NCBI GenBank assembly: GCA_041651015.1
Contig: JBAZKA010000002.1
Coordinates: 70,163-134,162 of the forward strand
Length of the DNA: 64,000 bases
From: Patescibacteria group bacterium
GTDB taxonomy: Bacteria > Patescibacteriota > Patescibacteriia > Magasanikbacterales > GWA2-37-8
Direction: 5' to 3'
Positions 47,993 to 62,412 of this stretch are shown here, one piece after another. Under the pieces are notes generated by a model that worked only from the letters and a program-made list of their open reading frames with translations, did no database searches and had not been told where the DNA came from. How positions within the stretch are numbered: position 1 is the first letter of the stretch; each line of letters begins with the position of its first letter. The translations under genes and the position numbers were made by a program.

Positions 47993-48021
47993 ATTGACAT
48001 AATATATTTTTCGTGCTATGT
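47993..48021 (+). promoter_or_regulatory. divergent promoter for the coiled-coil gene
   Basis: TTGACA, 17-nt spacer, TATGTT with a TG extension. Confidence 0.45.
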
Positions 48022-48108
48022 TTGGATATCCGGAAGAAAAGGGATTTATTCGTTTGCCACGAAGCCCTTTACAATTTAGGTAAGGGGTTGCAACAAGAGG
48101 AGGGAACC

Positions 48109-49242
48109 ATGTTTGGCGGGAAAAAACAAGAAGAAGTCGAAAGAGAGCTGATCAGACGTGAACAGGCCGTCGAAATGGAAGAACTTCGGCTCGCGGCCGA
48201 GAAGGAACGGATAGGCGATTCGTGGGAGGAAGTAAAAGCGGCGGCCGAAGCGGCCATGCGTATGACGGCTGAAGTTGAGGCCGAGAAAGCAGTCTTGGTC
48301 GAAGAGAAAAATCATCTGGCTGGGGCGAACGATCTCGTTCGGGAACGGCTGTCTACCATCGGTATCATCCTGCGTCGGCTTTTCACGGGCGAACTTGACG
48401 GTGATCCGTCAGAAAGCGCGCGCGCCATGCTGGAGTATCTGGGCACGTTGCCCGACGCTCCAGTTGGACTCGCCGATGACCTGGACGAGAAAGTCAAGAT
48501 GATCGTCGAGGCGTCGACCTTGTCGCGATTGAACGGCAGTCTGCAGCAGATCTGTATAGCGGTCGAAGCCGCGAGAAAAGCGATGGATCACAAATCGCGC
48601 CAACTCGACGTTCTGCTCGCGCAAAAGCGCGAGCAGAACAATCTCTACAAGAACGCTGTTGCCGACAAGGCAACGGCCGAAGAACGCGCAAGGTCGGCCG
48701 AAACCGAACGCGACACGGCTGTGGAGGAGCTTAATAGGCTGCGCGAGGAACGTGATCGCATCACAGATCAGATCAACGAGGTTAGGCTGGCCGTGACAAA
48801 TCTTTTGGACTCGCAGAAAAAAGTCCAAGCTGATTTGTCCGCCGAGAAGATCAGGCTCGCCGAACTGCAGAAGTCTTGTGACGAGGTCACAAAAATCGCA
48901 AAGGCTGATTTGATCGTGTCCGAAAAACAGCGCGATGCGGCGTTGGCTGTTTTGCGCAGCAAGGTTCAAGCGGCGCAAACCGCCTTGGCCGCGGAGGAGC
49001 AGATTTCCAGGGAACGCATTGAAGCCGCGGAAAAAGCCGCGGAAGACATGCGGACTGAAGCCATGCGAGCCATTGAAGGAGTGGCGAGCGACCTGCAAGG
49101 CGAAACCGAAAGTCATGTTGCCCTGCTTAAGGGGCTGGCCGGCGGGATCAAGGCTGCAACAACCTCTCGGCTAACAGAACCGTTTTTCGGACCGCCGCCC
49201 GAGCCGGAAGACCCGCCGCCTTCCGCTGAAGGCGCCGAGTAG
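48109..49242 (+). CDS. GC-rich coiled-coil protein with a Pro-rich C-terminus, hypothetical
   Basis: GAGGAGGG RBS then MFGGKKQEE. About 330 residues of Ala/Glu/Arg/Leu heptad-like sequence, ending PPPEPEDPPPSAEGAE. Confidence 0.6.
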   Translation: MFGGKKQEEVERELIRREQAVEMEELRLAAEKERIGDSWEEVKAAAEAAMRMTAEVEAEKAVLVEEKNHLAGANDLVRERLSTIGIILRRLFTGELDGDPSESARAMLEYLGTLPDAPVGLADDLDEKVKMIVEASTLSRLNGSLQQICIAVEAARKAMDHKSRQLDVLLAQKREQNNLYKNAVADKATAEERARSAETERDTAVEELNRLREERDRITDQINEVRLAVTNLLDSQKKVQADLSAEKIRLAELQKSCDEVTKIAKADLIVSEKQRDAALAVLRSKVQAAQTALAAEEQISRERIEAAEKAAEDMRTEAMRAIEGVASDLQGETESHVALLKGLAGGIKAATTSRLTEPFFGPPPEPEDPPPSAEGAE

Positions 49243-49260
49243 CCCCTACCACAGTTCATT

Positions 49261-49299
49261 ACCCCGCTGATACTGGCAATATCAGCGGGGATTTTATTT
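49261..49299 (+). terminator. rho-independent terminator
   Basis: ccccgctgata-N7-tatcagcgggg followed by ATTTTATTTT. Confidence 0.7.
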
Positions 49300-49324
49300 T
49301 CTCCCGACGTAAAGTCGGGACGGG

Positions 49325-49353
49325 GTTGACTTTCGCGTCTGATTTCATTATAC
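49325..49353 (+). promoter_or_regulatory. promoter
   Basis: TTGACT, 17-nt spacer, TATACT. Confidence 0.55.
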
Positions 49354-49388
49354 TGGTTTTATATTCTTCAATTTGGAAAAATTATTTT

Positions 49389-50000
49389 ATGAACTCCAAA
49401 CAATTAAATAGATTGCTAAATTTGGTCAGAGAAACCGGCGACCGTTTGGTCGTGGCCGATAATGAAAGCGACGATGTTTTTGTATTGATGAATTTAGATG
49501 AATACGAAAATTTGTCCGGCAACGGCGAATTTGACTCACATGAGTTTTGTCATGAATGCGAGCACGAATCTAAACGCGATGAATTTAATGACGATTTTGA
49601 CCCGGAAGAATTAAACGAAAATGCTTTTGATTTTTCCGCATCTGAAGAGCCGGAACAAAAAAAACCAACCGAGATGAGCGAGCGCGAACTTCTGGAAAAA
49701 ATTAACGGCGACATTGCGGATTGGCGCAGCGCTCAGACCAAGAAAGAAGAAAATGAATTAGCCGAAGAATTAGTGGAAGAAAAAATTTCTGAGCCGGAAA
49801 GCAGACCGGTGGACGATAATAGCGGCGAAGAAAAAATTCAAGTTCCTTCCGGCATTGCCAGTATCGGCGATGTGCTGTTTGATAAAAAATACCAAAACAG
49901 GGAATTTGACAACACGCCCAGAACGGGAATTATTGAAGAAGACGATTTATCCGGTGTGCCGCATGAGGAAGAGAAATTTTATTTGGAGCCGGTAGAATAA
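49389..50000 (+). CDS. highly acidic hypothetical protein
   Basis: MNSKQLNRLLNLVRETGDRLVV... start (an upstream extension looks like promoter read-through). D/E-rich throughout. Confidence 0.5.
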   Translation: MNSKQLNRLLNLVRETGDRLVVADNESDDVFVLMNLDEYENLSGNGEFDSHEFCHECEHESKRDEFNDDFDPEELNENAFDFSASEEPEQKKPTEMSERELLEKINGDIADWRSAQTKKEENELAEELVEEKISEPESRPVDDNSGEEKIQVPSGIASIGDVLFDKKYQNREFDNTPRTGIIEEDDLSGVPHEEEKFYLEPVE

Positions 50001-50060
50001 TGATAGATTAGCCAAGAAATCAGTTTTTTGGTTATTCACAGAATATTCACAAGCGACCTC

Positions 50061-50089
50061 TTGCCAAAATGGCGCATATCTGCTATAAT
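50061..50089 (+). promoter_or_regulatory. promoter of tuf
   Basis: TTGCCA, 17-nt spacer, TATAAT with a TGc extension. Confidence 0.6.
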
Positions 50090-50226
50090 CGTTAAGAAAT
50101 ATGAGCGCTTGGCTCTAAATTTTTGAGCCGAACATTCAATTTGAAAATTTTTTTTATAAATATTTTAGCGGCTGGATAACAAATCTGCGACGACCACTCG
50201 GAGCAGTGCCGTGTAAATGTAATCGT

Positions 50227-51417
50227 ATGGCAGAGTTTGTGAGAACAAAGCCGCACGTCAACATTGGCACAATTGGCCACGTTGACCATGGTAAGACTAC
50301 TCTTACCGCGGCGATTTTGCAGGTTTTGAGCACTCATGGTATGACTGCTCAAAATAAAGGTGTGGCTGATTTGGATAAAGCCCCTGAGTCAAAAGCTCGC
50401 GGTATTACCATTTCCACCGCTCATGTTGAGTACGAAACAACCAAGAGGCACTATGCCCACGTGGATTGTCCGGGACATGCTGATTATGTGAAGAACATGA
50501 TCACCGGCGCCGCTCAAATGGACGGCGCGATTTTGGTCGTCTCGGCTGCTGATGGTCCGATGCCGCAAACCCGCGAACACATCGTGCTCGCTCGTCAAGT
50601 CGGTGTGCCGTATATCGTCGTTTTCTTAAACAAAGTTGACCAAGTTTCCGACCCGGAATTGATTGATTTGGTGGAAGCCGAGGTTCGTGATTTGCTCAAG
50701 AAATATGATTTCCCGGGCGACACCACCCCGATTATCCGCGGTTCCGCTTTGCAAGCTTTGCAAAACCCGACCGATGAAGCGGCCGCCAAACCGGTTTTGG
50801 ATTTAATGAATGTGGTTGATGAATATATTCCGGAGCCGACCCGCGCCGTTGATCAACCTTTCCTCATGCCGATTGAAGACGTGTTCTCCATTGAAGGCCG
50901 AGGCACTGTGGTGACCGGTCGTATTGAACGCGGCATCATTCACGTGAATGATGAAGTGGAAATTGTCGGTTTGAATGAAGAAAAAATGAAAACCGTGGTC
51001 ACTGGTATTGAAATGTTCAACAAACAGTTGAAAGAAGGTCAAGCCGGTGATAACGCGGGCATCTTGCTTCGCGGTACCAAAAAGGAAGAAGTTGAGCGCG
51101 GTATGGTTCTCGCCAAACCGGGCACAATTAATCCGCACACAGATTTTGAAGCCCAAGTGGTTGTCTTGACCAAAGAAGAAGGCGGACGCCACAAACCGTT
51201 TTTCAAGGGTTACAAACCGCAGTTTTACGTCCGCACTACGGACGTCACCGGTGAAGTAATTTTGCCGGAAGGCACGGAAATGGTTATGCCGGGCGATACA
51301 ATCAGCTTTACCGTGAAGTTGATCAAGCCGGTAGCTATGGAAGAAAAAATGAAGTTCGCCATTCGCGAGGGCGGTAAGACCGTCGGCGCGGGTGTGGTAA
51401 CAAAAATTCTTAAATAA
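50227..51417 (+). CDS. tuf: elongation factor Tu
   Basis: [34 protein letters not shown], 396 aa. Confidence 0.95.
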
Positions 51418-51426
51418 GTCATGACG

Positions 51427-51455
51427 AGGGGGGTGAAATATTCACCCCCCTTTGT
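51427..51455 (+). terminator. rho-independent terminator after tuf
   Basis: gggggtgaa-atat-tcaccccc followed by TTTG. Confidence 0.7.
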
Positions 51456-51476
51456 CGTGAGATTAAGTTCTTTACC

Positions 51477-51815
51477 ATGACGCAAGCAATAAAGAAAACC
51501 ACAGAAGCAGTAGCGACAAGAATTCGCATCAAAATTCGCGCTTATGACAATAAAATTATTGATCAAGCGACCAAGATGATTATTGAAACAGCCGAGCGCA
51601 ATGATGCGAAAGTGATCGGGCCGGTACCGTTGCCGACCGAAAAGTCCAAATTTACGGTTAATCGCTCTACGTTTGTGCACAAGGATGCGCGCGAGCAGTT
51701 TGAAATGCGCGTGCACAAGCGTTTGATTGACATTATGAACGCCTCGCCAAAATGCGTTGACGCGCTCATGAGTTTGAGCTTACCGTCGGGTGTGGATGTG
51801 GAAATAAAGATGTAA
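51477..51815 (+). CDS. rpsJ: 30S ribosomal protein S10
   Basis: IRIKIRAYD...GPVPLPT...TVNRS.FV.KD.REQFE.R.HKRLIDI. Confidence 0.95.
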
Positions 51816-51836
51816 AAAATAGTTGGAGTGAGGGGC

Positions 51837-51865
51837 TTGACAACAATTATTAATTGTTGTATAGT
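51837..51865 (+). promoter_or_regulatory. strong internal promoter between rpsJ and rplC
   Basis: TTGACA, 17-nt spacer, TATAGT. Confidence 0.55.
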
Positions 51866-51871
51866 GCCAGC

Positions 51872-52110
51872 GTTGAAAAAAGTCGGTTTGGCCCAACTAA
51901 ATAAGATTCACCGCAATGGGCGATGGAAAACATTTACGCGGAATCAGGCGCGACGGGAGAAAATTATTTAAAACAAAAACTACAATAGCCAATCTATACC
52001 GGATTTATTCGGTGTTTGCGTGCAAGTTTGTTTAAATAGACAAGCGTGCGCGAGATGGCTAGAAGCAATAGCATTAAAATATATTTAATGTTTTTGCTTC
52101 TAGTTTTTTG
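51872..52110 (+). ncRNA. about 240-nt leader or small RNA ending in an intrinsic terminator (candidate r-protein attenuator)
   Basis: Predicted TSS about 51872. Internal hairpins (for example accgga-ttta-ttcggt). Terminator ctagaagcaa-N25-ttgcttctag followed by TTTTTTG at 52059-52110. No convincing ORF. Confidence 0.4.
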
Positions 52111-52212
52111 TTAAGAGGGGGTTGAAGGACGGGATTTAATTGATTATTTAACAGTTATCTCCGTAAATCGGGATGGGCTCAATTCGCTTTGGCGGAAAGA
52201 GAACGCGGAGCA

Positions 52213-52923
52213 ATGACTCACAAAAATATGAAGTTTATTTTAGGAAAAAAATTAGGAATGACGCAGGTGTTTTCTCCAAACGGAGATATTTTGCCGGTCA
52301 CCCGGGTAACTGCCGGACCGTGCCAAATCACTCAAGTCAAAAATTCCGGCAAAGATAATTCCGTTGCCGTGGAAATCGGTTTTGAAGAAGTGAAAGATTT
52401 TCGCGTCAACAAACCGAAAGCGGGTCATCTGAATGATTTAAAACCGGTCAGACATTTACGTTCGTTTTTAACTGAATCAGTGGAAGGACTGAATCGCGGC
52501 GATGTCGTGGCCGTGGATACTTTTTCTGTCGGCGACATCGTCACTGTAGAAGGAATATCCAAAGGTAAGGGTTTCGCCGGCGTGGTTAAACGCCACGGTT
52601 TTCATGGTGCTCCGGCTTCCCATGGTCACAAACACGATTTGCGCGCTCCGGGTTCTATCGGCGCGGGCGGTGTGCAACGTGTTTTCAAAGGTATGCGTAT
52701 GGCCGGTCGCATGGGCGGAGGTCCGGTAACGGTCAAGAATCTGGAAGTAGTGGAAATTCATCCTGAGACCAATGAAATTTATATCAAAGGCGCGATTCCG
52801 GGAGCGAGAAACGGTTTGGTGAAGATTTCCTGCCCGGGAAAATTGTCGGTAAACAAGGCCGCCTCGTCAGCGGAACCGGTTAGCGAAAATGTTTCGGTTG
52901 AAGCCGAACAGGTTAACGCTTAA
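52213..52923 (+). CDS. rplC: 50S ribosomal protein L3
   Basis: GGAG RBS. MKFILGKKLGMTQVF....VTV.........VKRHGFHG.PASHGHK. Confidence 0.95.
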   Translation: MTHKNMKFILGKKLGMTQVFSPNGDILPVTRVTAGPCQITQVKNSGKDNSVAVEIGFEEVKDFRVNKPKAGHLNDLKPVRHLRSFLTESVEGLNRGDVVAVDTFSVGDIVTVEGISKGKGFAGVVKRHGFHGAPASHGHKHDLRAPGSIGAGGVQRVFKGMRMAGRMGGGPVTVKNLEVVEIHPETNEIYIKGAIPGARNGLVKISCPGKLSVNKAASSAEPVSENVSVEAEQVNA

Positions 52924-52934
52924 CGGCAGAATAT

Positions 52935-53582
52935 TTGAAATATATGAAGACAAAAGTTTACAATCTTGAAGGTAAAGAAACCGGCGAAATAAATTTAGAC
53001 GAGAAGGTTTTTGGCGTCAAAGTTAAACCCGAAGTTGTTCACGAGGTTTTTGTCGCCATGACAAATAATCAACGCGAACCGTGGGCTGATACCAAGAATC
53101 GCGGTGAAGTTTCCGGCGGCGGCAGAAAGCCTTGGAAGCAAAAAGGCACCGGTCGCGCCCGCCATGGTTCAATCCGTTCCCCGATTTGGGTGGGCGGCGG
53201 CGTGGCTTTTGGTCCTTTGACCGAGAGAAATTATAAATCCAAAATCAACAAAAAAACTCGACGTTTGGCCACTCGCATGTGTTTGTCCGATAAGCTGGCG
53301 TCAGGCCTTTTGACTGTGGTGGAAAATTTTGATTTCAGCGAGCCAAAGACCAAAGTGTTTGCCGCGTTTTTATCCAAATTGCCGGCTAAGCACAAATCGT
53401 ATTTGATTTTGACCGGTACGACTGATAACGACAAGGTCTATCGCATGGCCAGAAATTTAAAGAAGATTGAAATTTTACGCGCCGCGGACGCGAACGTGAT
53501 GGTGCTCGCTCAGAAAGAAGCGGTCATCGTGAGTCAAGACGGCGTGGGTGAAATTGAAAAGATTTTAATCAAGAATGACTAA
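52935..53582 (+). CDS. rplD: 50S ribosomal protein L4
   Basis: [34 protein letters not shown]. Confidence 0.95.
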
Positions 53583-53868
53583 TGATATGGCAACAACTTG
53601 CATTAAAAAACCGCTTATCACCGAAAAGTCTGCTGTGGCGCAGAGTTTGAATAAATATTCTTTTGTTGTCAGCAACAGCGCCAATAAAGCTGATGTTAAA
53701 CGCGCGATTAAAGAAATGTATAATGTGGAACCGATCGCTATAAATATTGTTAATATGGAAGGTAAGGCCACCCGCCGAGGCGCAGTGACCGGTCGACGCG
53801 GAGATTACAAAAAGGCTGTGGTGACATTACCTAAGGGTAAGACCATTGCTATTCACGAAGGCGTTTAA
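53575..53868 (+). CDS. rplW: 50S ribosomal protein L23
   Basis: KPLITEKS......NKY.F.V...ANK..VK.AI...Y.V......N. The start may be the internal ATG at 53587. Confidence 0.9.
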   Translation: MTNDMATTCIKKPLITEKSAVAQSLNKYSFVVSNSANKADVKRAIKEMYNVEPIAINIVNMEGKATRRGAVTGRRGDYKKAVVTLPKGKTIAIHEGV

Positions 53869-53891
53869 GGTAAGATCATAGATTCAATAAT

Positions 53892-54728
53892 ATGCCAATT
53901 AAAGTTTACAAACCAACTACCAACGGCCGCCGCAACTCCAGCGTGGATACTTTTTCTGATCTCACCAAATGGGAGCCGGAAAAATCCCTAACCACTGTTT
54001 TGAAGCCGAAGTCCGGTCGCAACAACCAGGGCTTTATTACCGTGCGCCACAAATCCGGCGGAGCCAAAAAACTTTATCGCTTGGTGGATTTCAAACAGCA
54101 AAAATTCAATGTGGAAGCCGAGGTGCTCGCCATAGAATATGACCCGAGCCGCGGGCCGCGCGTTGCTTTGATTCAATATGATGGCGGCGAGAAATCATAC
54201 ATTCTCGCTCCGGCCAATTTGAATGTCGGCGACAAGGTGGTGGCTTCCGATAAAGTGATTGAAGCCAAAACCGGCAACAGAATGCCGTTGGAATATATGC
54301 CGGTTGGTTTATTTATTTTTAATATTGAACTTACTCCGGGCAAAGGCGGACAACTTGTTCGCGGCGCCGGACTTTCCGCGCAGTTGGTAGGTTTTGAAGG
54401 CGAATATGCGCAGATTAAATTGCCTTCCGGTGAAATTCGTTCGGTGCGCAAACAATGCGCGGCTTCCATTGGCGCTTTGAGCAATGCCGATAGACGTTTG
54501 ATTCGCTGGGGCAAGGCCGGACGCATGCGTCATCGCGGTATCAAGCCGACCGTCAAAGGTAAAAACATGAACCCGGTTGACCATCCGCACGGCGGCGGCG
54601 AGGGCCATTCTCCGATCGGCCAGAAACGCGGCCCGCAAACTGTTTATGGCAAAACCGCCATGGGCGTCCGCACCCGCAAGCCGAAAAAATGGAGTGATAA
54701 ATTTATTATAAAATCCCGACGTAAATAA
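53892..54728 (+). CDS. rplB: 50S ribosomal protein L2
   Basis: GRNN.G.ITVRH.GGG.K..YR..DF, and a C-terminal region GKAGR.R..G.KP.VRG..MNPVDHPHGGGEG. Confidence 0.95.
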   Translation: MPIKVYKPTTNGRRNSSVDTFSDLTKWEPEKSLTTVLKPKSGRNNQGFITVRHKSGGAKKLYRLVDFKQQKFNVEAEVLAIEYDPSRGPRVALIQYDGGEKSYILAPANLNVGDKVVASDKVIEAKTGNRMPLEYMPVGLFIFNIELTPGKGGQLVRGAGLSAQLVGFEGEYAQIKLPSGEIRSVRKQCAASIGALSNADRRLIRWGKAGRMRHRGIKPTVKGKNMNPVDHPHGGGEGHSPIGQKRGPQTVYGKTAMGVRTRKPKKWSDKFIIKSRRK

Positions 54729-54743
54729 TAATAACGATTTTGT

Positions 54744-55088
54744 ATGTCCAGAAGTTTAAAAAAAGGACCGTATGTAGATCCGCGAGTGCTCGGCAAAGTT
54801 GCCGCGCAAAAAGCGACCGGCAAAAAATCACCAATCAAGACGTGGTCGCGTGCTTGCGTTATTACTCCGGAAATGGTTTCAACGACTTTTCTTGTTCATA
54901 ATGGTAAAGATTTTTTGAGTGTTTTGGTTGATGAAAATATGGTTGGACATCGTTTGGGAGAATTTGCGCCGACTCGTAAATTTATTCGCCATGGTGGCAA
55001 AATGGCCAAGGAGCAAGAAGCCAAAGCCGCCGAGACTGCGTCCCCGGCCGCCAAACCGGCCGCCGCCAAACCGGCCGCTAAAAAATAA
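54744..55088 (+). CDS. rpsS: 30S ribosomal protein S19 with an Ala/Lys/Pro-rich C-terminal extension
   Basis: [12 protein letters not shown]......TWSR...[27 protein letters not shown], plus about 25 extra residues ([12 protein letters not shown]). Confidence 0.95.
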
Positions 55089-55092
55089 ATAT

Positions 55093-55545
55093 ATGACAGA
55101 AGTTAAACAAGAGAATAAACAAGAAGGTAAACCGGAAATCAAAGCGACCTTGAATTTTTTGAAAATGGGTCCGCGTAAAGTCCGTCTGATTGCTGATTCC
55201 ATGCGCGGCCACAAAGTCAGTTTGGTGTTGGAACGTCTGACCATGAATTCCCAACACGCCGCTTTGCCCATGCTCAAACTTTTGAAATCAGCCGTGGCTA
55301 ATGCCAAACATAATTATAAATTTGATGTGGGTACTCTGCGTGTAAAAAGCATTACCGTTGACGGCGGTCCGGTGGTTAAACGCTGGATGCCGAAGGCGCA
55401 TGGCCGAGCCACTCCGCTCCGCCAGAGAACTTCGCACATCAATTTGGTATTGGTGCACGAAGAACCGCTCGCGAAAAAGGTCAAATCCGCCCGAGGCGGA
55501 TCCGCCTTCGGCGGAAAAGCGGTTAAGAAAACATCTAAAAAATAA
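55093..55545 (+). CDS. rplV: 50S ribosomal protein L22
   Basis: KMGPRKVRLIAD..RG..V..AL..L........A.....LL.SA.ANA. The track's 5' extension overlaps rpsS and is read-through. Confidence 0.9.
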   Translation: MTEVKQENKQEGKPEIKATLNFLKMGPRKVRLIADSMRGHKVSLVLERLTMNSQHAALPMLKLLKSAVANAKHNYKFDVGTLRVKSITVDGGPVVKRWMPKAHGRATPLRQRTSHINLVLVHEEPLAKKVKSARGGSAFGGKAVKKTSKK

Positions 55546-55550
55546 TCACT

Positions 55551-56243
55551 ATGGGTCATAAAGTTCATCCGACAATTCACCGTACTCCATATATATTTCC
55601 TTGGGACTCTCGCTGGTACGCGAAAAATGATCAATTGCCGACTTATCTCGAGCAAGAAGTTCGTATCCGCGCGTATTTGGCCAAGAAATTAAAAGAAGCG
55701 GGAATTGACGCTATTTCCATTGAACGCAGTCCGAAAGATATGACTATTACCATTCTGGCAGCCAAGCCGGGCGTGGTGATTGGACGTTCGGGCCAAGGAT
55801 TGGATGTTATCCGCAAAGAAATTGAAAAGAAATTTTTGCAATGCAAATTAAAAGTTAAGATGAACATTGTTCCGGTCAAACAGCCGGCTCTGTCCGCGGC
55901 CGTGGTCGCCCAAGGTTGCGCCGCCGAGATAGAAAAACGTATGCCTTTCCGCCGTGTAATGAAACAAGCGATTGAAAAAGTTATGGCCGCCGGCGCTCAA
56001 GGGGTGAAGATAAACATGGCCGGACGCTTGAACGGCGCGGAAATCGCCCGACGCGAGACTTTGTCTTCGGGCAAAATGTCGCTCATCACTTTCCGCAGCA
56101 ATGTGGATTACGCCCTGACCGAGGCGCAGACGATTTACGGTAAGATCGGCGTAAAAGTGTGGGTTTATCATGGTGAAGTTTTTGGCCGCCGAGACAAATT
56201 CGCCAAAACCGATAAAGATAAAAATCAGGAACAAGGTAAATAG
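55551..56243 (+). CDS. rpsC: 30S ribosomal protein S3
   Basis: MGHKVHP...R........W.A, a KH domain, and C-terminal GAEIARRE..S.G. Confidence 0.95.
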   Translation: MGHKVHPTIHRTPYIFPWDSRWYAKNDQLPTYLEQEVRIRAYLAKKLKEAGIDAISIERSPKDMTITILAAKPGVVIGRSGQGLDVIRKEIEKKFLQCKLKVKMNIVPVKQPALSAAVVAQGCAAEIEKRMPFRRVMKQAIEKVMAAGAQGVKINMAGRLNGAEIARRETLSSGKMSLITFRSNVDYALTEAQTIYGKIGVKVWVYHGEVFGRRDKFAKTDKDKNQEQGK

Positions 56244-56270
56244 TCATAAGCAAATTAATACCGATTCAGT

Positions 56271-56681
56271 ATGTTATTGCCAAAAAAAGTTTTACATCGC
56301 AAATGGCACAAAGGACGCAAGCGCGGACTTGGCGTGGCCACCAGAGCCAACTCTATCGCCTTTGGCGAGTTTGGTTTGAAAACAGAATCACATGGTTGGG
56401 TGACCAGCCGTCAGATTGAAGCGGCTCGCCGTGTACTGACCCGTTATGTGCGACGCGGCGGCAAAATTTGGATTCGCATTTTTCCGGACAAGCCGGTGAC
56501 CGCCAAAGGAAACGAACAGCCGATGGGCGGCGGCAAAGGCGCGCCGGACCATTATGTGGCTGTGGTCAAACCGGGCACCATGTTGTTTGAAATGGGTGGT
56601 GTGGCCAAAGATCAAGTTGAAGAAGCGATGAAACTCGCCGGCTATAAACTGGGTTTGCGCGTTAAATTTGTGGAAAAATAA
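56271..56681 (+). CDS. rplP: 50S ribosomal protein L16
   Basis: MLLPKK...RK.HKGR..G.A..........FGLK......[34 protein letters not shown]. Confidence 0.95.
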
Positions 56682-56690
56682 TTTTTCAAT

Positions 56691-56894
56691 ATGGAACTTG
56701 CCGAATTAAAAGAAAAGAGCGTGGCCGAATTGAACGAGCTTTTGAAAGAGCAATCGGCTTCGCTTCGCGACCATCGTTTTAAAGTGGCTTCCGGTCAGAT
56801 GAAAACATTTAATAAAATTTCTGAAGCCAAAAAAATCGTGGCGAGAATTCAAACGATTTTAACGCAGCGTTCAATCGCGGCCGACACCAAATAA
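56691..56894 (+). CDS. rpmC: 50S ribosomal protein L29
   Basis: LKEKSVAELNELLKEQ...L...RFK.A.GQ......I...KK.VARI.T.L. Confidence 0.9.
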   Translation: MELAELKEKSVAELNELLKEQSASLRDHRFKVASGQMKTFNKISEAKKIVARIQTILTQRSIAADTK

Positions 56895-56907
56895 TAACTA
56901 AAGATTT

Positions 56908-57174
56908 ATGAAATCAGATACTAAAAAAATTGTTGTCGCGAAACGCGAACTGGTGGGCAAGGTGGTTTCCACGGCCATGGCCAAAACAATCGTGGTCAAT
57001 GTGGAACGCCGAAAAGCCCATCCGAAATACAAGAAATTTTATCGCGTGGACAAAAAATATCATGTACACGATGAAAAGAAAATCGCCCAGGTCGGAGATA
57101 CGGTGCGATTTATTGAATGCCGCCCGCTGTCCAAAACAAAGAGATGGCGCGTGGTGGAAATTGTGAAGAAATAA
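56908..57174 (+). CDS. rpsQ: 30S ribosomal protein S17
   Basis: G.VVS..M.KT..V.VER...HP.Y.K.......K.H.HDE......GD.V....CRPLSK.K.W.VV. Confidence 0.95.
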
Positions 57175-57184
57175 TGTCAATCCT

Positions 57185-57556
57185 ATGATTCAACATAGAA
57201 CAATGTTAGTATCGGCCGACAATACCGGCGCCAAAAAATTGCAATGCTTGCGCGTGCTTGGAGGTTATCGCAAACGCTATGCTCGCTTGGGCGATTTGGT
57301 TGTTTGTTCGGTAAAAATCGCAGCCCCGCGCGGACTGGTTAAAAAAGGTGAAGTCGTGACCGCGGTTATCGTCCGCCAACACAAAGAAGAACGCCGTAAA
57401 GATGGAACTTATATTCGTTTTGATGAGAATGCGGCCGTGATTATTGACAAAAAAAATAAGGAGCCGAAAGGTTCACGCATTTTTGGACCAATAGCGCGAG
57501 AATTACGCACCAAAGGTTTTCAAAAAATTATTTCTTTAGCTCCGGAAGTTTTGTAA
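57185..57556 (+). CDS. rplN: 50S ribosomal protein L14
   Basis: MIQ..T.L.VADN.GAK...C..VLGG.......GD......K.A.P.G.VKKG.VV.AV.VR. Confidence 0.95.
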
Positions 57557-57562
57557 AATTAT

Positions 57563-57871
57563 ATGAAAATAAAAACAAACGACAACGTAAAAATTATTGC
57601 CGGAAAAGACAAAGGCAAAGAGGGCAAAGTGGTCCAGGTCTTCGCCAAGGAAGGCAAGATTGTGGTGGAAGGCGCGAATATCATGAAAAAACATCTGCGT
57701 CCGAAAAAGCAGGGTGAGAAAGGCCAAGTAATTGAATTAGCAGCTCCGTTTAACGCCTCCAATGCCATGCTTATCTGTGAAAAATGCGGTAAGCCGACCA
57801 GAGTCGGATATAAGGTTGGTGAAAAGTCCAAAAATCGTATTTGCAAAAAATGCAAAGAAGTAATCGCTTAA
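57563..57871 (+). CDS. rplX: 50S ribosomal protein L24 with a C-terminal CxxC...CxxC zinc-ribbon-like tail
   Basis: KOW motif (VKIIAGKDKGKEGKVV), followed by CEKCGKPTRV...ICKKCKEV. Confidence 0.9.
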   Translation: MKIKTNDNVKIIAGKDKGKEGKVVQVFAKEGKIVVEGANIMKKHLRPKKQGEKGQVIELAAPFNASNAMLICEKCGKPTRVGYKVGEKSKNRICKKCKEVIA

Positions 57872-57879
57872 ATTCCAAT

Positions 57880-58422
57880 ATGACTCCAAATTTGTATAAA
57901 ACTTATAAGAAAGAAGTGGTGCCGGCGCTCATGAAAGAGTGCGGGTTTAAGAATGTGATGCAGGTGCCGAAAATCAAAAAAATCGTGCTCAATGTCGGTG
58001 TCGGCAAATTTCTCAAAGAACCGAACTACATTGAAAACGTGGAAAAGAATTTGGCGAAAATCACCGGACAAAAGCCGGTCCGCACCAAATCCAAAAAAGC
58101 CATTTCCAATTTTAAAATTCGCGAGAACATGGATATCGGCGTGACCGTCACTTTGCGCGGTCCGAAGATGTATTTTTTCTTGGAGAAATTACTGGCCGTC
58201 ACCCTGCCGCGCACCCGCGACTTCCGCGGTATATCGGACAAAGCTTTTGACGCGCAAGGCAATTACAATTTTGGTTTTACCGAGAATGTTGCTTTTCCGG
58301 AAATTAAAGCCGGCGAAGCCGAGAAAAATCACGGTTTGCAAATCGTCATTTCCACGAGCGCGAAAAACAAAGCCGATGGCAGAGCATTGCTCGCGGCGCT
58401 CGGTTTTCCTTTCGTAAAATAA
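57880..58422 (+). CDS. rplE: 50S ribosomal protein L5
   Basis: LYK.YK.EV.P.LMKE.GFKNVMQVPKI.KIVLN.GVG, and C-terminal FDAQGNYNFG..E...FPEI. Confidence 0.95.
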   Translation: MTPNLYKTYKKEVVPALMKECGFKNVMQVPKIKKIVLNVGVGKFLKEPNYIENVEKNLAKITGQKPVRTKSKKAISNFKIRENMDIGVTVTLRGPKMYFFLEKLLAVTLPRTRDFRGISDKAFDAQGNYNFGFTENVAFPEIKAGEAEKNHGLQIVISTSAKNKADGRALLAALGFPFVK

Positions 58423-58431
58423 TTATAGATT

Positions 58432-58617
58432 ATGGCTACCCAATCGCAAATTGCTAAATCAAATCGCACACCGAAATTTTCCACCCGCATCGTGAGACGT
58501 TGTTGGAAGTGCGGACGCCAGCATGGTTTCTTCCGCAAATTCGGTTTGTGCAGAATTTGTTTCAGAGAGCTTGCCAACTCGGGCAAAATCCCGGGTGTGC
58601 GCAAGTCCAGCTGGTAA
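58432..58617 (+). CDS. rpsN: 30S ribosomal protein S14, zinc-binding type Z (61 aa)
   Basis: [34 protein letters not shown]. Confidence 0.95.
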
Positions 58618-58657
58618 CAATAATCCAAAATATCAAATATATAAGAATTAGAAATTT

Positions 58658-59047
58658 ATGATGACTGATCCCATCGCTGACATGTTAACCAGAATCCGCA
58701 ACGCCTCTAGGGTGCACAAAAAAGAGGTGATTGTGCCTTTTTCCAAAATCAAAAAAACGATTGCGGAAATTTTGGCGCAGAGCGGTTATTTGGAGCGCAT
58801 AGAAGTCACGGCTGACACAAAGCCGGCGCTTATAATCACTCTCAAATATCATGGCCGTACGCCGGCAATTAATTCGCTTGACCGCGTCTCCAAACCGGGT
58901 CATCGCCGATATGTAAAGAGCACCGAGCTCGGCAAAGTGCTGAACGGCATGGGCACGGCGATTTTGTCCACTCCGCGCGGAGTGATGACTGACGCTGACG
59001 CTAAAGCGAACAAAGTCGGCGGCGAATTGTTGTGCGAAGTATTTTAA
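58658..59047 (+). CDS. rpsH: 30S ribosomal protein S8
   Basis: DPIADMLTRIRNA.......V..P.SK.K..IA.IL...GY. Confidence 0.95.
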   Translation: MMTDPIADMLTRIRNASRVHKKEVIVPFSKIKKTIAEILAQSGYLERIEVTADTKPALIITLKYHGRTPAINSLDRVSKPGHRRYVKSTELGKVLNGMGTAILSTPRGVMTDADAKANKVGGELLCEVF

Positions 59048-59061
59048 TCCGCTATTAACAA

Positions 59062-59619
59062 ATGAATAATATGTCTCGTGTCGGAAAAAAAATTCGTGTG
59101 TTGCCAGCGGGTGTTACTGCCGCTGTGTCTGGCGATATGCTTAACGTCAAAGGGCCGAAAGGCGAATTAAGCCTGAAGCTTCATCCGCGCGTCACCGTGG
59201 TGATTAACGGCAATGAAGTATCAGTGACTGTCCCGCGTGAAAACGATGGTAAAGACCGCGCTTTGTGGGGAACATTTTCTTCGCTCATCGGCGGTATGCT
59301 TGAGGGCGTCACCAACGGCTTCAAAAAACAATTGGAAGTTAACGGGGTCGGTTTCAAAGTGGCGATGAAAGGAAATGATTTAGCCTTGGAACTCGGTTTT
59401 TCTCACCCGGTTGAGTTTAAAGCTCCGGCTGGAATTAAATTGTCCGTGGAAAAAAATGTAATCACCGTTGAAGGATTTGATAAACAATTGGTCGGCGAAA
59501 CGGCCGCACAAATTCGCAAATTAAAGAAGCCGGAACCGTACAAAGGCAAAGGCGTCAAATATTTGGAAGAAGTTTTGCGCCACAAAGCCGGCAAGACGGC
59601 TGCCAAGACTGCTGCATAA
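59062..59619 (+). CDS. rplF: 50S ribosomal protein L6
   Basis: SRVGKK.I..P.GV......V...GPKGEL, a two-domain L6. Confidence 0.95.
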   Translation: MNNMSRVGKKIRVLPAGVTAAVSGDMLNVKGPKGELSLKLHPRVTVVINGNEVSVTVPRENDGKDRALWGTFSSLIGGMLEGVTNGFKKQLEVNGVGFKVAMKGNDLALELGFSHPVEFKAPAGIKLSVEKNVITVEGFDKQLVGETAAQIRKLKKPEPYKGKGVKYLEEVLRHKAGKTAAKTAA

Positions 59620-59640
59620 TTACATTTTTAAGCAAATTAT

Positions 59641-60018
59641 ATGAAACGATTGGTTCACCAAACAAAAAATGAACGACGCATAGTGCGACACGCCCGCGTT
59701 CGTTCGCGCGTTTCCGGCACAGCGGAATGTCCGCGTTTGTCTGTGTTTCGCGGTTTGAAACAAATCAAATTGCAGTTGATTGATGACGCAGCCCGCAAAA
59801 CTCTTTGCGCCGCCACTTCTTCTGAGATTAAAACCAAAGAAAAAGTTGAAGGTAAAGCGGCGAAAGTGGCCGAGGCGTATTTGGCCGGTAAATTGCTCGC
59901 CAAAAAAGCCGGTGAAAAAGACATTAAACGGGCGGTGTTTGACCGTGCCGGTTATCGTTATCACGGTCGAGTCGCGGCCGCGGCCGATGGCGCGCGCGAG
60001 GGCGGTATAAAGATTTAA
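59641..60018 (+). CDS. rplR: 50S ribosomal protein L18
   Basis: RH.R.R......ECPRLSVFR.LK.I..QLIDD...KTL.A.S.....FDR.GY.YHGRV.A.AD.AREGG. Confidence 0.95.
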   Translation: MKRLVHQTKNERRIVRHARVRSRVSGTAECPRLSVFRGLKQIKLQLIDDAARKTLCAATSSEIKTKEKVEGKAAKVAEAYLAGKLLAKKAGEKDIKRAVFDRAGYRYHGRVAAAADGAREGGIKI

Positions 60019-60030
60019 TCGTAATTATAT

Positions 60031-60552
60031 ATGAAACCAACGCGAAGAAAAGACGATCGCGGCAGACGCGAAGAAAAAAGTGAATTTGACCAGTTTATTC
60101 TGGACTTGGCCCGCGTCACCCGCGTCACCAAGGGCGGTAAACATTTGAGTTTCCGCGCTTGTGTGATTATCGGTGATCGCGCCGGACGGGTCGGCTTTGG
60201 CGTGGCCAAAGGCAAAGATGTTCAATTGGCCGTGGAAAAATCCAATCGCCAAGCCAAGAAAAACATTATTACCGTTCCCATGGTCAAAGGCACAATTCCG
60301 CACGCGGTTTATTCCAAATTCAAAGCGGCGCAAATTTTATTGAAACCAGCTCCGGTCGGTTCGGGTATTATCGCCGGTGGCGCGGTTCGCGTGGTTTTGG
60401 AATTGGCCGGCGTATCCAATGTCTCGGCCAAAATTTTGAGCCGAACAAAAAATAAAATCGTGCTGGTCAAAGCAACCTTTGAAGCCTTGAAGGGTTTTAA
60501 ACATCTTCACGCTGATGCCAAAAAGGCGGCGCCGATTGAAGAAAAGAAATAA
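60031..60552 (+). CDS. rpsE: 30S ribosomal protein S5
   Basis: RV.KGGK..SFRA.V..GD..GRVGFG..K...V..A..K. Confidence 0.95.
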   Translation: MKPTRRKDDRGRREEKSEFDQFILDLARVTRVTKGGKHLSFRACVIIGDRAGRVGFGVAKGKDVQLAVEKSNRQAKKNIITVPMVKGTIPHAVYSKFKAAQILLKPAPVGSGIIAGGAVRVVLELAGVSNVSAKILSRTKNKIVLVKATFEALKGFKHLHADAKKAAPIEEKK

Positions 60553-60582
60553 ATTATTTTATTTCGCTCACTCATATTGTTT

Positions 60583-61023
60583 ATGAAAATTACAGTCCAT
60601 ACAATGAAGCCGGCTCATGGCGCCAAGCACAGTAAAAAGCGTGTTGGCCGAGGTAATGCCTCCGGTCATGGCGCTTATTCCACGCGCGGCGGCAAAGGCC
60701 AAACCGCTCGTTCCGGTGGCAGCCGCGGTTTGAAGACCAAGGCTTTCAAACGCTTGATGCAATCCACGCCCAAATTGCGCGGTTTCAAGAGTTTAAATAT
60801 TAAACCGAGCGAAGTTTATTTGTCCACTTTGGATAAAAAATTTGACAACGGCGCGGTGGTAAATTTGGCGTCCCTCAAAGAAAAAAAGATAATCAATGAT
60901 GACGCGAGAGCGGCCAAGATTATCGTTAACGGTGAATTAACCAAAAAACTGACGGTTGAAGGCGTGAAAATGACCAAGACAGCCAAAGAAATAATTGAAA
61001 AATTAGGCGGCGAAGTGAGGTAG
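60583..61023 (+). CDS. rplO: 50S ribosomal protein L15 (no L30 gene precedes it)
   Basis: MKITVHTMKPAHGAKHSKKRVGRGNASGHGAYSTRGGKGQTARSGG. S5 is followed directly by L15. Confidence 0.9.
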   Translation: MKITVHTMKPAHGAKHSKKRVGRGNASGHGAYSTRGGKGQTARSGGSRGLKTKAFKRLMQSTPKLRGFKSLNIKPSEVYLSTLDKKFDNGAVVNLASLKEKKIINDDARAAKIIVNGELTKKLTVEGVKMTKTAKEIIEKLGGEVR

Positions 61024-61134
61024 TTTATAAAGTTAAAAAGTTCATAAAGTTTATAAAGTTTTGTTTTGCGGTCTATCTTTATACGCTTTTAACTTTACAA
61101 CTTTATAACTTTACAAACTTTATAACTGAGTTTT
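61024..61134. repeat. inverted arrays of AAAGTT-unit repeats forming a long imperfect hairpin between rplO and secY (copy 2 of the dispersed repeat)
   Basis: Left arm ttataaagttaaaaagttcataaagtttataaagtt. Right arm aactttacaactttataactttacaaactttataa. The reverse complement of the right arm nearly equals 7864-7894. Confidence 0.55.
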
Positions 61135-62412
61135 ATGTGGGAAAAAATTTCAAAGGTTTGGGAGATTAAAGACGTACGCAAAAATATCTTAGTCGTACTC
61201 GGCCTTTTGTTTATTTATCGTCTCATCGCGCACATCCCGATGCCGGGTGTTGATGTTGCCAGTTTGAAGGAATTTATGTCCGGGCAACAGGCCTTTCAGC
61301 TTTTGAATATATTTTCCGGCGGTACAATATCAAATTTTTCGTTGATTTTGCTCGGGGTCGCGCCATATATTACTTCTTCCATTATCTTTCAGCTTTTGGC
61401 TATGATTGTGCCGAAGTTTGAAGAAATGCAAAAAGAAGGCGAGTCCGGCCAAGCCAAGATTAACAATTATACTCGTTGGCTGACTATTCCGCTGGCGCTT
61501 TTACAAGCGTTTAGCATGATTAAATATCTTTCTCAATCTTCCTCCGGTGTGTTTCCTTCAACGATGACCGGCTTGGATGTGGCGATTATGTGTATTAGTA
61601 TCACAGCCGGTACTATGTTTTTGGTTTGGATCGGCGACCGTATTACCGAGTGCAAGGTTGGTAATGGAATCTCATTAATCATATTTGCCGGTATCGTCTC
61701 CTCAATTCCGTCTTCCGTTGCTACAGCGGTGGCCAACTATACTTCAGCGGATTTTTATACTTTCCTCATGTATGGTGTGGTGGCTATCGCCACTGTGGTG
61801 GGCGTGGTGTTTATCAGCGAGGGGCAACGCCAAATTCCGGTTAATTACGCCAAACAAGTTCGCGGTTCCAAAGTGTTTGGCGGCGGTTCTTCCCACTTGC
61901 CGTTGCGTGTCAATATGGCCGGCGTGATCCCGATTATCTTCGCCATTTCTCTGGTGATGGTTCCGCCGATGTTGGCTCAATTTTTCCTCAGCTCAAAATC
62001 AGAATGGTTAAAAAATGCCGCCACGCACACCATCTCTCTATTTAACAACAGTATTTTTTACGGCGTGCTTTATTTCATTTTGGTGTTTGCCTTCACGTAT
62101 TTTTATACGTCGGTAATTTTCCACCCGAATAAAGTAGCTGAGAATTTGCAGAAAAATGGCGGTTTTGTGCCAGGCATCAGACCGGGCAAAGAAACCGAAA
62201 ATTATCTCACCGCCATTGTTGGCCGTATCAATTTGATCGGCGCGACCTTCCTTGGTCTTATCGCCATCTTGCCTTTACTCATCAAAGCCGTGAGCGGCTC
62301 ATCAGTTATTTCTCTCGGCGGCACGTCGCTCCTCATCGTTGTGGCCGTGGCCATTGAATCGGCCAAACAACTGGAAGCCCAGGTGACTATGCATGAATAC
62401 GATCGGGTATAA
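61135..62412 (+). CDS. secY: preprotein translocase subunit SecY
   Basis: 425 aa, ten TM segments, and a conserved SecY N-terminal pattern (RL......L..YR....IP.PG). Confidence 0.95.
   Translation: MWEKISKVWEIKDVRKNILVVLGLLFIYRLIAHIPMPGVDVASLKEFMSGQQAFQLLNIFSGGTISNFSLILLGVAPYITSSIIFQLLAMIVPKFEEMQKEGESGQAKINNYTRWLTIPLALLQAFSMIKYLSQSSSGVFPSTMTGLDVAIMCISITAGTMFLVWIGDRITECKVGNGISLIIFAGIVSSIPSSVATAVANYTSADFYTFLMYGVVAIATVVGVVFISEGQRQIPVNYAKQVRGSKVFGGGSSHLPLRVNMAGVIPIIFAISLVMVPPMLAQFFLSSKSEWLKNAATHTISLFNNSIFYGVLYFILVFAFTYFYTSVIFHPNKVAENLQKNGGFVPGIRPGKETENYLTAIVGRINLIGATFLGLIAILPLLIKAVSGSSVISLGGTSLLIVVAVAIESAKQLEAQVTMHEYDRV

Follow-up and report, generated by a model that had tools for sequence, protein, structure and literature searches.

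A conserved promoter, structured leader and terminator at the head of the rplC-to-rplO ribosomal protein operon in Candidatus Magasanikbacteria and related Patescibacteria: a probable transcription attenuator

A stretch of 64,000 nucleotides (nt) from a Patescibacteria group bacterium (GenBank assembly GCA_041651015.1, contig JBAZKA010000002.1, positions 70,163 to 134,162), referred to here as the window, carries a promoter, a structured RNA and an intrinsic terminator between the genes rpsJ and rplC. Its source clade, placed by the relatives of its L3 protein, is Candidatus Magasanikbacteria, a member of the Patescibacteria or Candidate Phyla Radiation (CPR). It is probable, in our judgement, that the element is the leader of a ribosomal protein (r-protein) operon that begins with rplC in Magasanikbacteria and related Patescibacteria, and that it works as an attenuator under the control of an r-protein encoded within that operon. 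At the level of sequence comparison, the analysis establishes a conserved promoter, a conserved structure and terminator, a strict linkage to rplC in cis and the need for transcription to read through the terminator. An earlier reading made from the letters alone, the sequence-only reading, had proposed a TTGACA-17-TATAGT promoter, a structured RNA of about 240 nt and a terminator with a 10-bp stem and T6. All three stand, and the further suggestion that this layout ahead of the L3 and L4 genes is that of r-protein-mediated attenuation is now backed by comparative evidence for action in cis. Coordinates are those of the window, and every part of the unit lies on its + strand.

The linkage to rplC was tested by scanning metagenomes with the terminator sequence alone, blind to gene context. 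This returned 68 loci. In 67 of them, rplC follows on the same strand at a distance of 3-119 nt, and rpsJ precedes the match on every contig long enough to show it. The remaining locus, in a high-GC contig, is a chance match located behind a stop codon. For the 5' domain of the RNA, a covariance model (R1) matches the window at 51876-51962 (54 bits, E = 5e-9) and finds no second copy in the 64 kb. Across 562 kb of genome loci together with the window, and 412 kb of metagenome loci, it finds exactly one copy per locus and always in the same position. The distance between the terminator and rplC varies among relatives from a few nt to about 140 nt, being 118 nt in the window, and in L088, L127, L137 and L142 the U-run lies only 3-7 nt from the rplC ATG. 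Since the U-run abuts the start codon in these copies, rplC can be reached there by read-through only, and many relatives leave no room for a separate rplC promoter. The element thus has the general marks of an r-protein leader, namely a same-strand position in the 5' untranslated region (UTR) of an r-protein operon with constant linkage, and a structure backed by covariation.

Because of this linkage (67/67), the shared strand and the closeness of the U-run to the ATG, sequence comparison indicates that the element is a cis-acting leader or attenuator of the rplC-to-rplO operon and not a free-standing small RNA (sRNA) gene. The latter had been offered as the alternative in the sequence-only reading: an abundant trans-acting RNA of about 240 nt would be the product, and read-through into rplC would be incidental. 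Such a gene would be expected to have a strong consensus promoter, a strong terminator and a high degree of structure, as is the case here, and in one sub-clade an A-tract, AAAAACUA(GAA), could pair with the U-tail and stabilise the terminated product. However, the RNA is never found apart from rplC or in the other orientation, its terminator abuts the rplC ATG in several genomes, and no alternative promoter is seen for an essential operon of about 20 genes. In addition, one relative keeps the promoter without the RNA (L028, described below), and there is no match to 6S, SRP, RNase P, tmRNA or any sRNA family of Rfam. With no copy elsewhere and no room for an rplC promoter in many relatives, we regard an independent sRNA gene as distinctly improbable. 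A dual role, as an attenuator that also yields a stable terminated product, is possible.

The promoter is of the sigma-70 type and spans 51837-51865, with TTGACA at 51837-51842, a 17-nt spacer and TATAGT at 51860-51865; the predicted start lies near 51872. It scores 11/12 and is one of the two best sites in a promoter scan of positions 50000-54000, and the same scan finds no promoter-like site between the terminator and rplC (52110-52227). An exact TTGACA-N16-18-TAnnnT is present in 70 of 75 distinct leaders, where it ends 25-40 nt (in two cases 53-54 nt) 5' of the conserved core, while the same pattern is met in only 3% of random 90-nt windows. In L028, a promoter of the form TTGACA-N17-TATAAAAT stands directly before rplC with neither leader nor terminator; the gap between rpsJ and rplC is just 67 nt in this relative (L028:2934-3000) and 76 nt in L059 (L059:2925-3000). 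Given the fixed distance in 70 of the 75 leaders and the retention of the promoter in the leaderless L028, the sequences indicate that the promoter belongs to the rplC operon and that the RNA is the 5' leader of that operon. L028 is a natural leaderless control.

The predicted transcript is about 238 nt long (approximately 51872-52109) and folds beyond chance expectation, with z = -5.0 for 51866-52115, where none of 200 shuffles was as stable, and z = -5.4 for 51816-52240. The + strand is more stable than its reverse complement (-70.2 against -54.6 kcal/mol). The 5' domain forms one long irregular hairpin (51882-51954), for which the evidence comes from an alignment of 58 distinct sequences (A2), covariation, the covariance model and the minimum free energy (MFE) fold. 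At its base, P0 pairs GUCG (51882-51885) with CGAC (51951-51954). Above it, P1 pairs UAAAU (51898-51902) with AUUUA (51932-51936), and is followed by an invariant 4-by-4 internal loop in which AAGA (51903-51906) stands opposite AAAC (51928-51931). The domain is completed by P2, UUCA (51907-51910) with UGGA (51924-51927), which carries a variable tip.

The comparative fold derived from alignment A2 (P0/P1a, P1, the AAGA/AAAC loop and P2) places 76% of cells in standard pairs. Its covariation score is 0.44, compared with 0.215 for column shuffles, of which none in 500 reached 0.44, and with 0.11-0.26 when partners were slid. P0, P1 and P2 all covary. P1 shows compensatory changes between UAAAU/AUUUA, CAGAU/AUCUG, CACAU/AUGUG and CUUAAU/AUUAAG, and GGAG/CUCC is a further form among the covarying helices. 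The frequent G-U pairs of the domain fit the + strand only, and the MFE fold of the window sequence taken singly is the same as the comparative model.

This arrangement is widespread. The gap between rpsJ and rplC is at least 150 nt in 76 of 78 relatives, with a median of 320 nt. About 100 relatives have the promoter in the same position, the 5' hairpin with its invariant AAGA/AAAC loop and covarying flanking helices, the AGCC...GGCU helix and the terminator GGCUAGAAGC...GCUUCUAG-U6. The order of blocks shared by the Magasanikbacteria-like leaders begins with CTTGACA-N17-TAnnnT and continues with UAAAU-AAGAU-YY, a variable hairpin and RR-GAAAAC-AUUUA. Then follow (A)GGAGAAA with an A/U-rich linker, AAGCC, variable hairpins, AAGGCUAGAAGC, a variable stem-loop and, lastly, GCUUCUAG-UUUUUU-GUUAA. 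The sequence-only reading had staked its proposal on the hairpin being retained in relatives; it is retained, with the rest of the unit, in about 100 of them. It had also described the unit as inserted between rpsJ and rplC. The unit does lie there, but the word is misleading, since in this clade the operon normally begins with the unit, which is conserved.

Distant Patescibacteria keep the core with other helices, in the form GGAG-AAAGN-UCC...GGA-AAAC-CUCC or GGAG-UAAG-UUG...CA-UAAC-CUCC, the latter being of the Uhrbacteria type. The loop is thus invariant across lineages in which the flanking helices have changed fully (UAAAU/AUUUA, GGAG/CUCC, AUAAAG/CUUUAU), and this indicates a specific binding partner for the loop. 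It also speaks against a purely constitutive element, that is, a 5' UTR that stabilises or processes the messenger RNA (mRNA), or a leaky terminator that insulates the operon from tuf-rpsJ read-through and fixes an expression ratio. In the window there is no terminator in the 21 nt between the rpsJ stop codon and the promoter, so that upstream transcription runs into the leader, and a fixed leak through the terminator would be a simple way to set stoichiometry. The failure to find an antiterminator, described below, fits a constitutive element as well. A mere insulator would not be expected to conserve its terminator stem in sequence in addition to pairing, as these leaders do, and we consider a constitutive role quite unlikely.

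Between the 5' domain and the terminator lie two further parts of the leader. The first, at 51955-51986, consists of a purine-rich box, GGGAGAAAA, and an A/U-rich linker; the (A)GGAGAAA box is conserved in most type-1 leaders. A segment of the linker, AAAAACUA (51975-51982), is complementary to UAGUUUUU at the foot of the terminator. As AAAAACUA(GAA), this complementarity takes in both the terminator foot and the U-run, and it was considered as a core feature of the leader. It does exist, but only in a sub-clade made up of the window, the L004 group, L006, L009 and L021. In L006, L009 and L021, the upstream tract takes the form AAAAACUAGAA, where the window has AAAAACUA, and is an exact complement of the 3' foot of the terminator and its U-run (UUCUAGUUUUU). 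These tracts could pair with the U-tail of the terminated product. In another subgroup (L011, L014, L083 and L144), GAAAGGGUUUUGACAAUAGU replaces the GGAGAAA box; it resembles a boxA-like sequence found 5' of the 16S ribosomal RNA (rRNA) gene.

The second part is P3, in which AGCC (51987-51990) pairs with GGCU (52057-52060) to enclose two variable hairpins (approximately 51998-52013 and 52018-52053). AGCC and AAGGCU are nearly invariant among the leaders. With transcripts truncated ahead of the terminator's 3' strand, the MFE folds of 60 out of 80 leaders contain the pairing of GGCU with AGCC. Because neither AGCC nor GGCU varies, P3 is without covariation evidence.

The terminator, or attenuator, occupies 52059-52109, where CUAGAAGCAA pairs with UUGCUUCUAG below a variable upper stem and U6 (52104-52109) follows. 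The predicted hairpin is stable (-23.1 kcal/mol) and the U-run comes directly after it, which is the configuration of an intrinsic terminator. The stem is two-tiered, with a lower stem of CTAGAAGCAA (52059-52068) and TTGCTTCTAG (52094-52103) and an upper stem of 9 bp. A consensus terminator scan missed this hairpin solely on account of its loop limit of 8 nt and the two-tier stem. Relatives conserve the sequence of the lower stem and of the U-run, their upper stem covaries, and more distant Patescibacteria have related stems of the form YYRGAAR with YUUCYRR, again followed by a U-run. The possibility that this is a generic terminator or repeat of the clade was ruled out, since the 64-kb window has a single TTCTRGTTTT, and since TTCTRGTTTTT is found in the loci of relatives almost only at the terminator site. 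Directly 3' of the U-run stands GUUAA (52110-52114), which is conserved in most type-1 leaders.

On this architecture, a mechanism can be proposed. The operon's own sigma-70 promoter, just 3' of rpsJ, would drive the rplC operon, and the leader of about 240 nt would be transcribed with its AAGA/AAAC hairpin, the AGCC:GGCU helix with its variable hairpins, and the conserved terminator. Every polymerase that expresses rplC-rplD...rpsH...rplO would have to pass this terminator, which would make the leader a transcription attenuator. An r-protein encoded downstream, when in excess of free rRNA, would bind the invariant loop, the terminator stem, or both, and its binding would raise termination, thus closing an autogenous feedback loop. 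The hairpin may have a second role, as a translational operator, in leaders that place it right against the ATG. By analogy with known systems, we infer that regulated termination, an r-protein effector, with L4 and S8 as the leads, and this direction of effect are most likely.

The means by which the terminator would be overcome weighs against an attenuator of this kind. In 80 leaders cut before the terminator's 3' strand, no conserved antiterminator was found and AGAAGC remains for the most part without a partner, although an essential operon would have to be expressed through a hairpin of -23 kcal/mol with U6. The sole competitor, the AGCC:GGCU helix of 4 bp, shares 2 bp (CU) with the terminator foot. 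This helix is invariant, without covariation, and differently arranged in the distant variants. If stabilised, it would be predicted to separate the hairpin from the U-run by 2 nt. Two other pairings were tried and rejected. UUCUA in the AGCCAUUCUA box was considered as an antiterminator against UAGAA, but the minimal leaders L081, L086, L094 and L099 lack UUCUA. Pairing of UAAAUAAG with a downstream UAUUUA box was dropped since the box is unchanged where P1 is CAGAU/AUCUG.

The same observations bear on a sensor other than an r-protein. In such a case, the ligand of the 5' domain would be a small molecule, an alarmone, a transfer RNA (tRNA) or a general transcription factor, for example of the Nus type, and its binding would set the level of read-through. 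An invariant loop, covarying helices and a sequence-conserved terminator are the signature of riboswitches too, no faithful mimic of rRNA was found in the leader, and S10, which is also NusE, is encoded directly upstream. However, the 5' domain is a simple rod and not the multi-helix junction typical of aptamers, and no conserved terminator/antiterminator alternative was found among the 80 leaders. Moreover, a search with the 4227 models of Rfam 15, which include riboswitches, T-box, 6S, SRP, RNase P, tmRNA and r-protein leaders, returned no match within 51816-52227 at E up to 10 when positions 50000-54000 were scanned. At the gathering score, there was none at the element in a scan of the whole window and none in 16 related loci. 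Control of a core r-protein operon is not known to us from any riboswitch class, which counts further against a sensor of this type, and we hold it to be unlikely. The more far-reaching version, in which almost the whole r-protein cluster is gated by a ligand-sensing RNA of a new kind (the ligand being, for example, an alarmone, a nucleotide or another growth-state signal) or by a Nus/S10-type antitermination target, is a long shot. If it were true, these bacteria, with their minimal regulatory repertoires, would couple ribosome synthesis to physiology through a single RNA switch.

A Nus-type factor can be addressed through the boxA-like sequences of the clade. In the metagenome contigs L127, L135 and L139, read here with rplC on the + strand, a 16S rRNA gene lies 2.7-3.7 kb 5' of the leader on the same strand, and no 23S rRNA gene was found next to it. 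A CCCCTTGACAGG promoter precedes the 16S gene in L127 and L135 and is absent from the 330 nt examined for L139. Also ahead of the gene are a UCUUUUUUCUUUCU tract, common to these contigs, and CUUU(U/G)ACAAYUU, which is boxA-like. A boxA or Nus site was rejected as an identity for the leader, and a Nus-type sensor is disfavoured likewise, since the boxA-like CUUUGACAAUUU found 5' of 16S in these contigs has no general counterpart in the leader; among leaders, a boxA-like UUUUGACAAU occurs in the L011/L014 group only.

Other identities were also set aside. A protein-coding sequence or leader peptide is contradicted by a median longest open reading frame (ORF) of 23 aa, by frames that are not conserved and by leaders in which the longest ORF has just 5 or 6 aa. 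A GGAG-N8-UUG mini-ORF is present in a minority of leaders and in differing frames. A resemblance to the L11-binding GTPase centre (GGCUUAGAAGCAGCC in 23S rRNA against GGCUAGAAGC) was considered and dropped, as the topology differs and L11 is encoded outside the operon.

The attenuator reading draws on the L4-responsive S10 leader of E. coli, which is the sole precedent for attenuation at this operon. There, L4 binding together with NusA-dependent pausing stimulates termination, and translation is controlled as well. That leader is located upstream of rpsJ, has a hairpin (HG) over the rpsJ start and is restricted to Gammaproteobacteria; its terminator hairpin HE, with a U-run, is preceded by HD, and both are its conserved parts (PMC3616713). 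The two systems are similar in having a promoter, a multi-hairpin leader of 170-240 nt and a terminator with a U-run shortly before the L3/L4 operon. The window leader has its own terminator with U6 and conserved upstream hairpins, and no Rfam model matches them. In contrast to the E. coli leader, the window leader follows rpsJ and precedes rplC, so that S10 is outside the controlled unit, it has no conserved hairpin over the first start codon, and it is found in Magasanikbacteria and other Patescibacteria. A further difference is that termination at the E. coli site depends on L4 and NusA, while the window terminator looks strong on its own. No sequence likeness is apparent by eye, the S10 leader sequence itself never having been aligned. 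Judged from sequence, the position after rpsJ, the missing start-codon hairpin and the different taxon place the window leader outside the E. coli L4/S10 leader family, though it may work like that attenuator. L4 is put forward as a possible ligand by precedent.

The lead to S8 comes from a partial resemblance of the invariant loop to the S8 site in helix 21 of 16S rRNA. This site is defined by a seven-nucleotide loop, AAG/UACU, with G597-C643, U598-A640, A642 and the A595-(A596-U644) triple (PMC4176348). Like it, the leader has a small invariant loop within a helix, with AAG in the 5' strand, A-C in the 3' strand and an adjoining U-A pair. The equivalents of the G-C pair, the U-A pair and the A before C, which are the nucleotides of helix 21 critical for S8, are invariant in the leader loop, and helix 21 of the clade itself is canonical, UAAGU/AUACU, in the leader-carrying contigs L127, L135 and L139. 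As with the E. coli spc operator for S8, the gene for the protein lies within the controlled operon. Several differences weigh on the other side. The leader has AAGA/AAAC (or UAAG/UAAC, or AAAGN/AAAC) in place of AAG/UACU, lacks an equivalent of U644 and has one additional nucleotide per strand, and its loop falls outside the seven-nucleotide definition. The E. coli S8 operator is at the rplE start and acts on translation, unlike the window element, which sits in an operon leader with a terminator. In favour of the resemblance, mRNA operators are known to carry extra bulges relative to rRNA sites. When E. coli rRNA (16S, 23S and 5S) was scanned crudely for AAGA/AAAC-type loops, with faulty lengths for degenerate patterns, the matches were at chance level only. 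S8 is a lead as a possible ligand through the likeness of the loop.

In general organisation, the leader resembles the B. subtilis infC leader, a case of L20-dependent transcription attenuation, and the Rfam leaders for L10, L13, L19, L20 and L21, all of which are covarying r-protein 5' UTRs that often end in a terminator (PMC3616713; PMC7247131). None of the models in the Rfam r-protein leader set, including L4-Archaeoglobi (Eckert and Weinberg 2020), matches the window or the 16 relatives. Among the r-protein leaders compared, none is reported from Patescibacteria or between rpsJ and rplC, and a search of the literature on RNA motifs of CPR and Parcubacteria and on rpsJ-rplC leaders found no CPR leader in this position. 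From its sequence and structure, the element would best be described as a new structural class of r-protein leader specific to Patescibacteria, within a kind of regulator, the attenuation-type leader, that is already known.

The region between the terminator and rplC may contain an additional structure. In the window, an optional second 5'-UTR hairpin, GUUAUCUCCG...CGGAGCAAUGAC, spans 52154-52217 and ends 10 nt before the rplC ATG at 52228. The motif that flags it, GTTA[TC]C, is present in 20 of 77 distinct relatives, and the stem shows compensatory changes among these (CUUCCC/GGGAAG, CUCCG/CGGAG). Related forms are found in other relatives, for example GUUAAGACC...GGUCCGCUAAC, while many leaders lack a second hairpin entirely. 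A GGAG in this hairpin, at 17 nt from the ATG, is too distant to serve as a Shine-Dalgarno sequence, and none is obvious for rplC.

The genes around the leader can be placed as follows. rpsJ (S10; 51477-51815, +) is the upstream neighbour according to the ORF listing, and S10 was found 5' of the leader in relatives by tblastn. rplC may start at ATG 52213 or, more likely given a homologous MKFILG start, at ATG 52228. The former gives a gap of 397 nt from rpsJ, the separation previously read from the sequence, and the latter one of 412 nt. The order of the upstream genes is rpsL, rpsG, fusA, two unassigned ORFs, tuf and rpsJ; rpsJ is thus grouped with tuf and is outside the leader-controlled unit. 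fusA and tuf are usually adjacent; here, the two unassigned ORFs (409 aa and 224 aa; 48013-50000) separate them. Before tuf, at 50061-50089, stands another consensus-like promoter (TTGCCA-17-TATAAT, with an extended TG). Between tuf (ending at 51417) and rpsJ (starting at 51477), a GC-rich hairpin, GGGGGGTGAA-ATA-TTCACCCCCC, is followed by TTTG (51426-51455); it is terminator-like, but its U-run is short.

Downstream, the rplC-to-rplO operon (52228-61023, +) was delimited from the ORF map and ORF list, with intergenic gaps of at most 40 nt. It comprises about 19 genes in about 9 kb, rplD (L4) and rpsH (S8) among them, and shows no break at the classical boundary between the S10 and spc operons. 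Given that the run from rplC to rplO is contiguous, the element 5' of rplC heads the whole cluster. Gene names within the operon were assigned from N-terminal sequences and canonical gene order, with a tblastn check for L3 and S10 only; the identities from rplC to rplO are presumably those of the established r-protein gene order. rpsE is followed directly by rplO (60577-61135, +), the gene for L30 being absent from the operon. Absence of L30 has been reported for CPR bacteria, with which the window is in agreement.

Apart from the leader, the window has another RNA locus of interest. At 24367-24653 (+), there is a tRNA-Phe(GAA)-like gene with an anticodon loop that appears to be split by a group I intron, which Rfam places at 24387-24604. 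The exon halves, GCCGAGGTAGCTCAGTGGTAGAGCGAAGGACTGAA and AATCCTTGCGTCGCGAGTCCGATCCTCGCCCTCGGCA, were identified by eye, and ARAGORN made no call for this tRNA. Just 5' of the intron-containing gene, ggccgaatccccgtcggtccac at 24329-24350 repeats the 3' end of a tRNA-Ala (24181-24203).

Patescibacteria are uncultivated bacteria whose genomes are reduced and whose ribosomes are unusual, and their regulation of gene expression seems to be little understood. The classical S10 operon is rewired in this clade, in that rpsJ stays in the tuf unit while a new promoter and leader stand before rplC. The element is a candidate new family for Rfam and could serve as a marker when CPR genomes are annotated. 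With its AAGA/AAAC loop, a terminator conserved in sequence and about 100 natural variants, it offers a compact RNA for binding and termination assays. As a clade-wide cis-regulatory RNA, it would control about 20 r-protein genes from one point, and attenuation-type control of r-protein synthesis has probably arisen independently outside Proteobacteria and Firmicutes.

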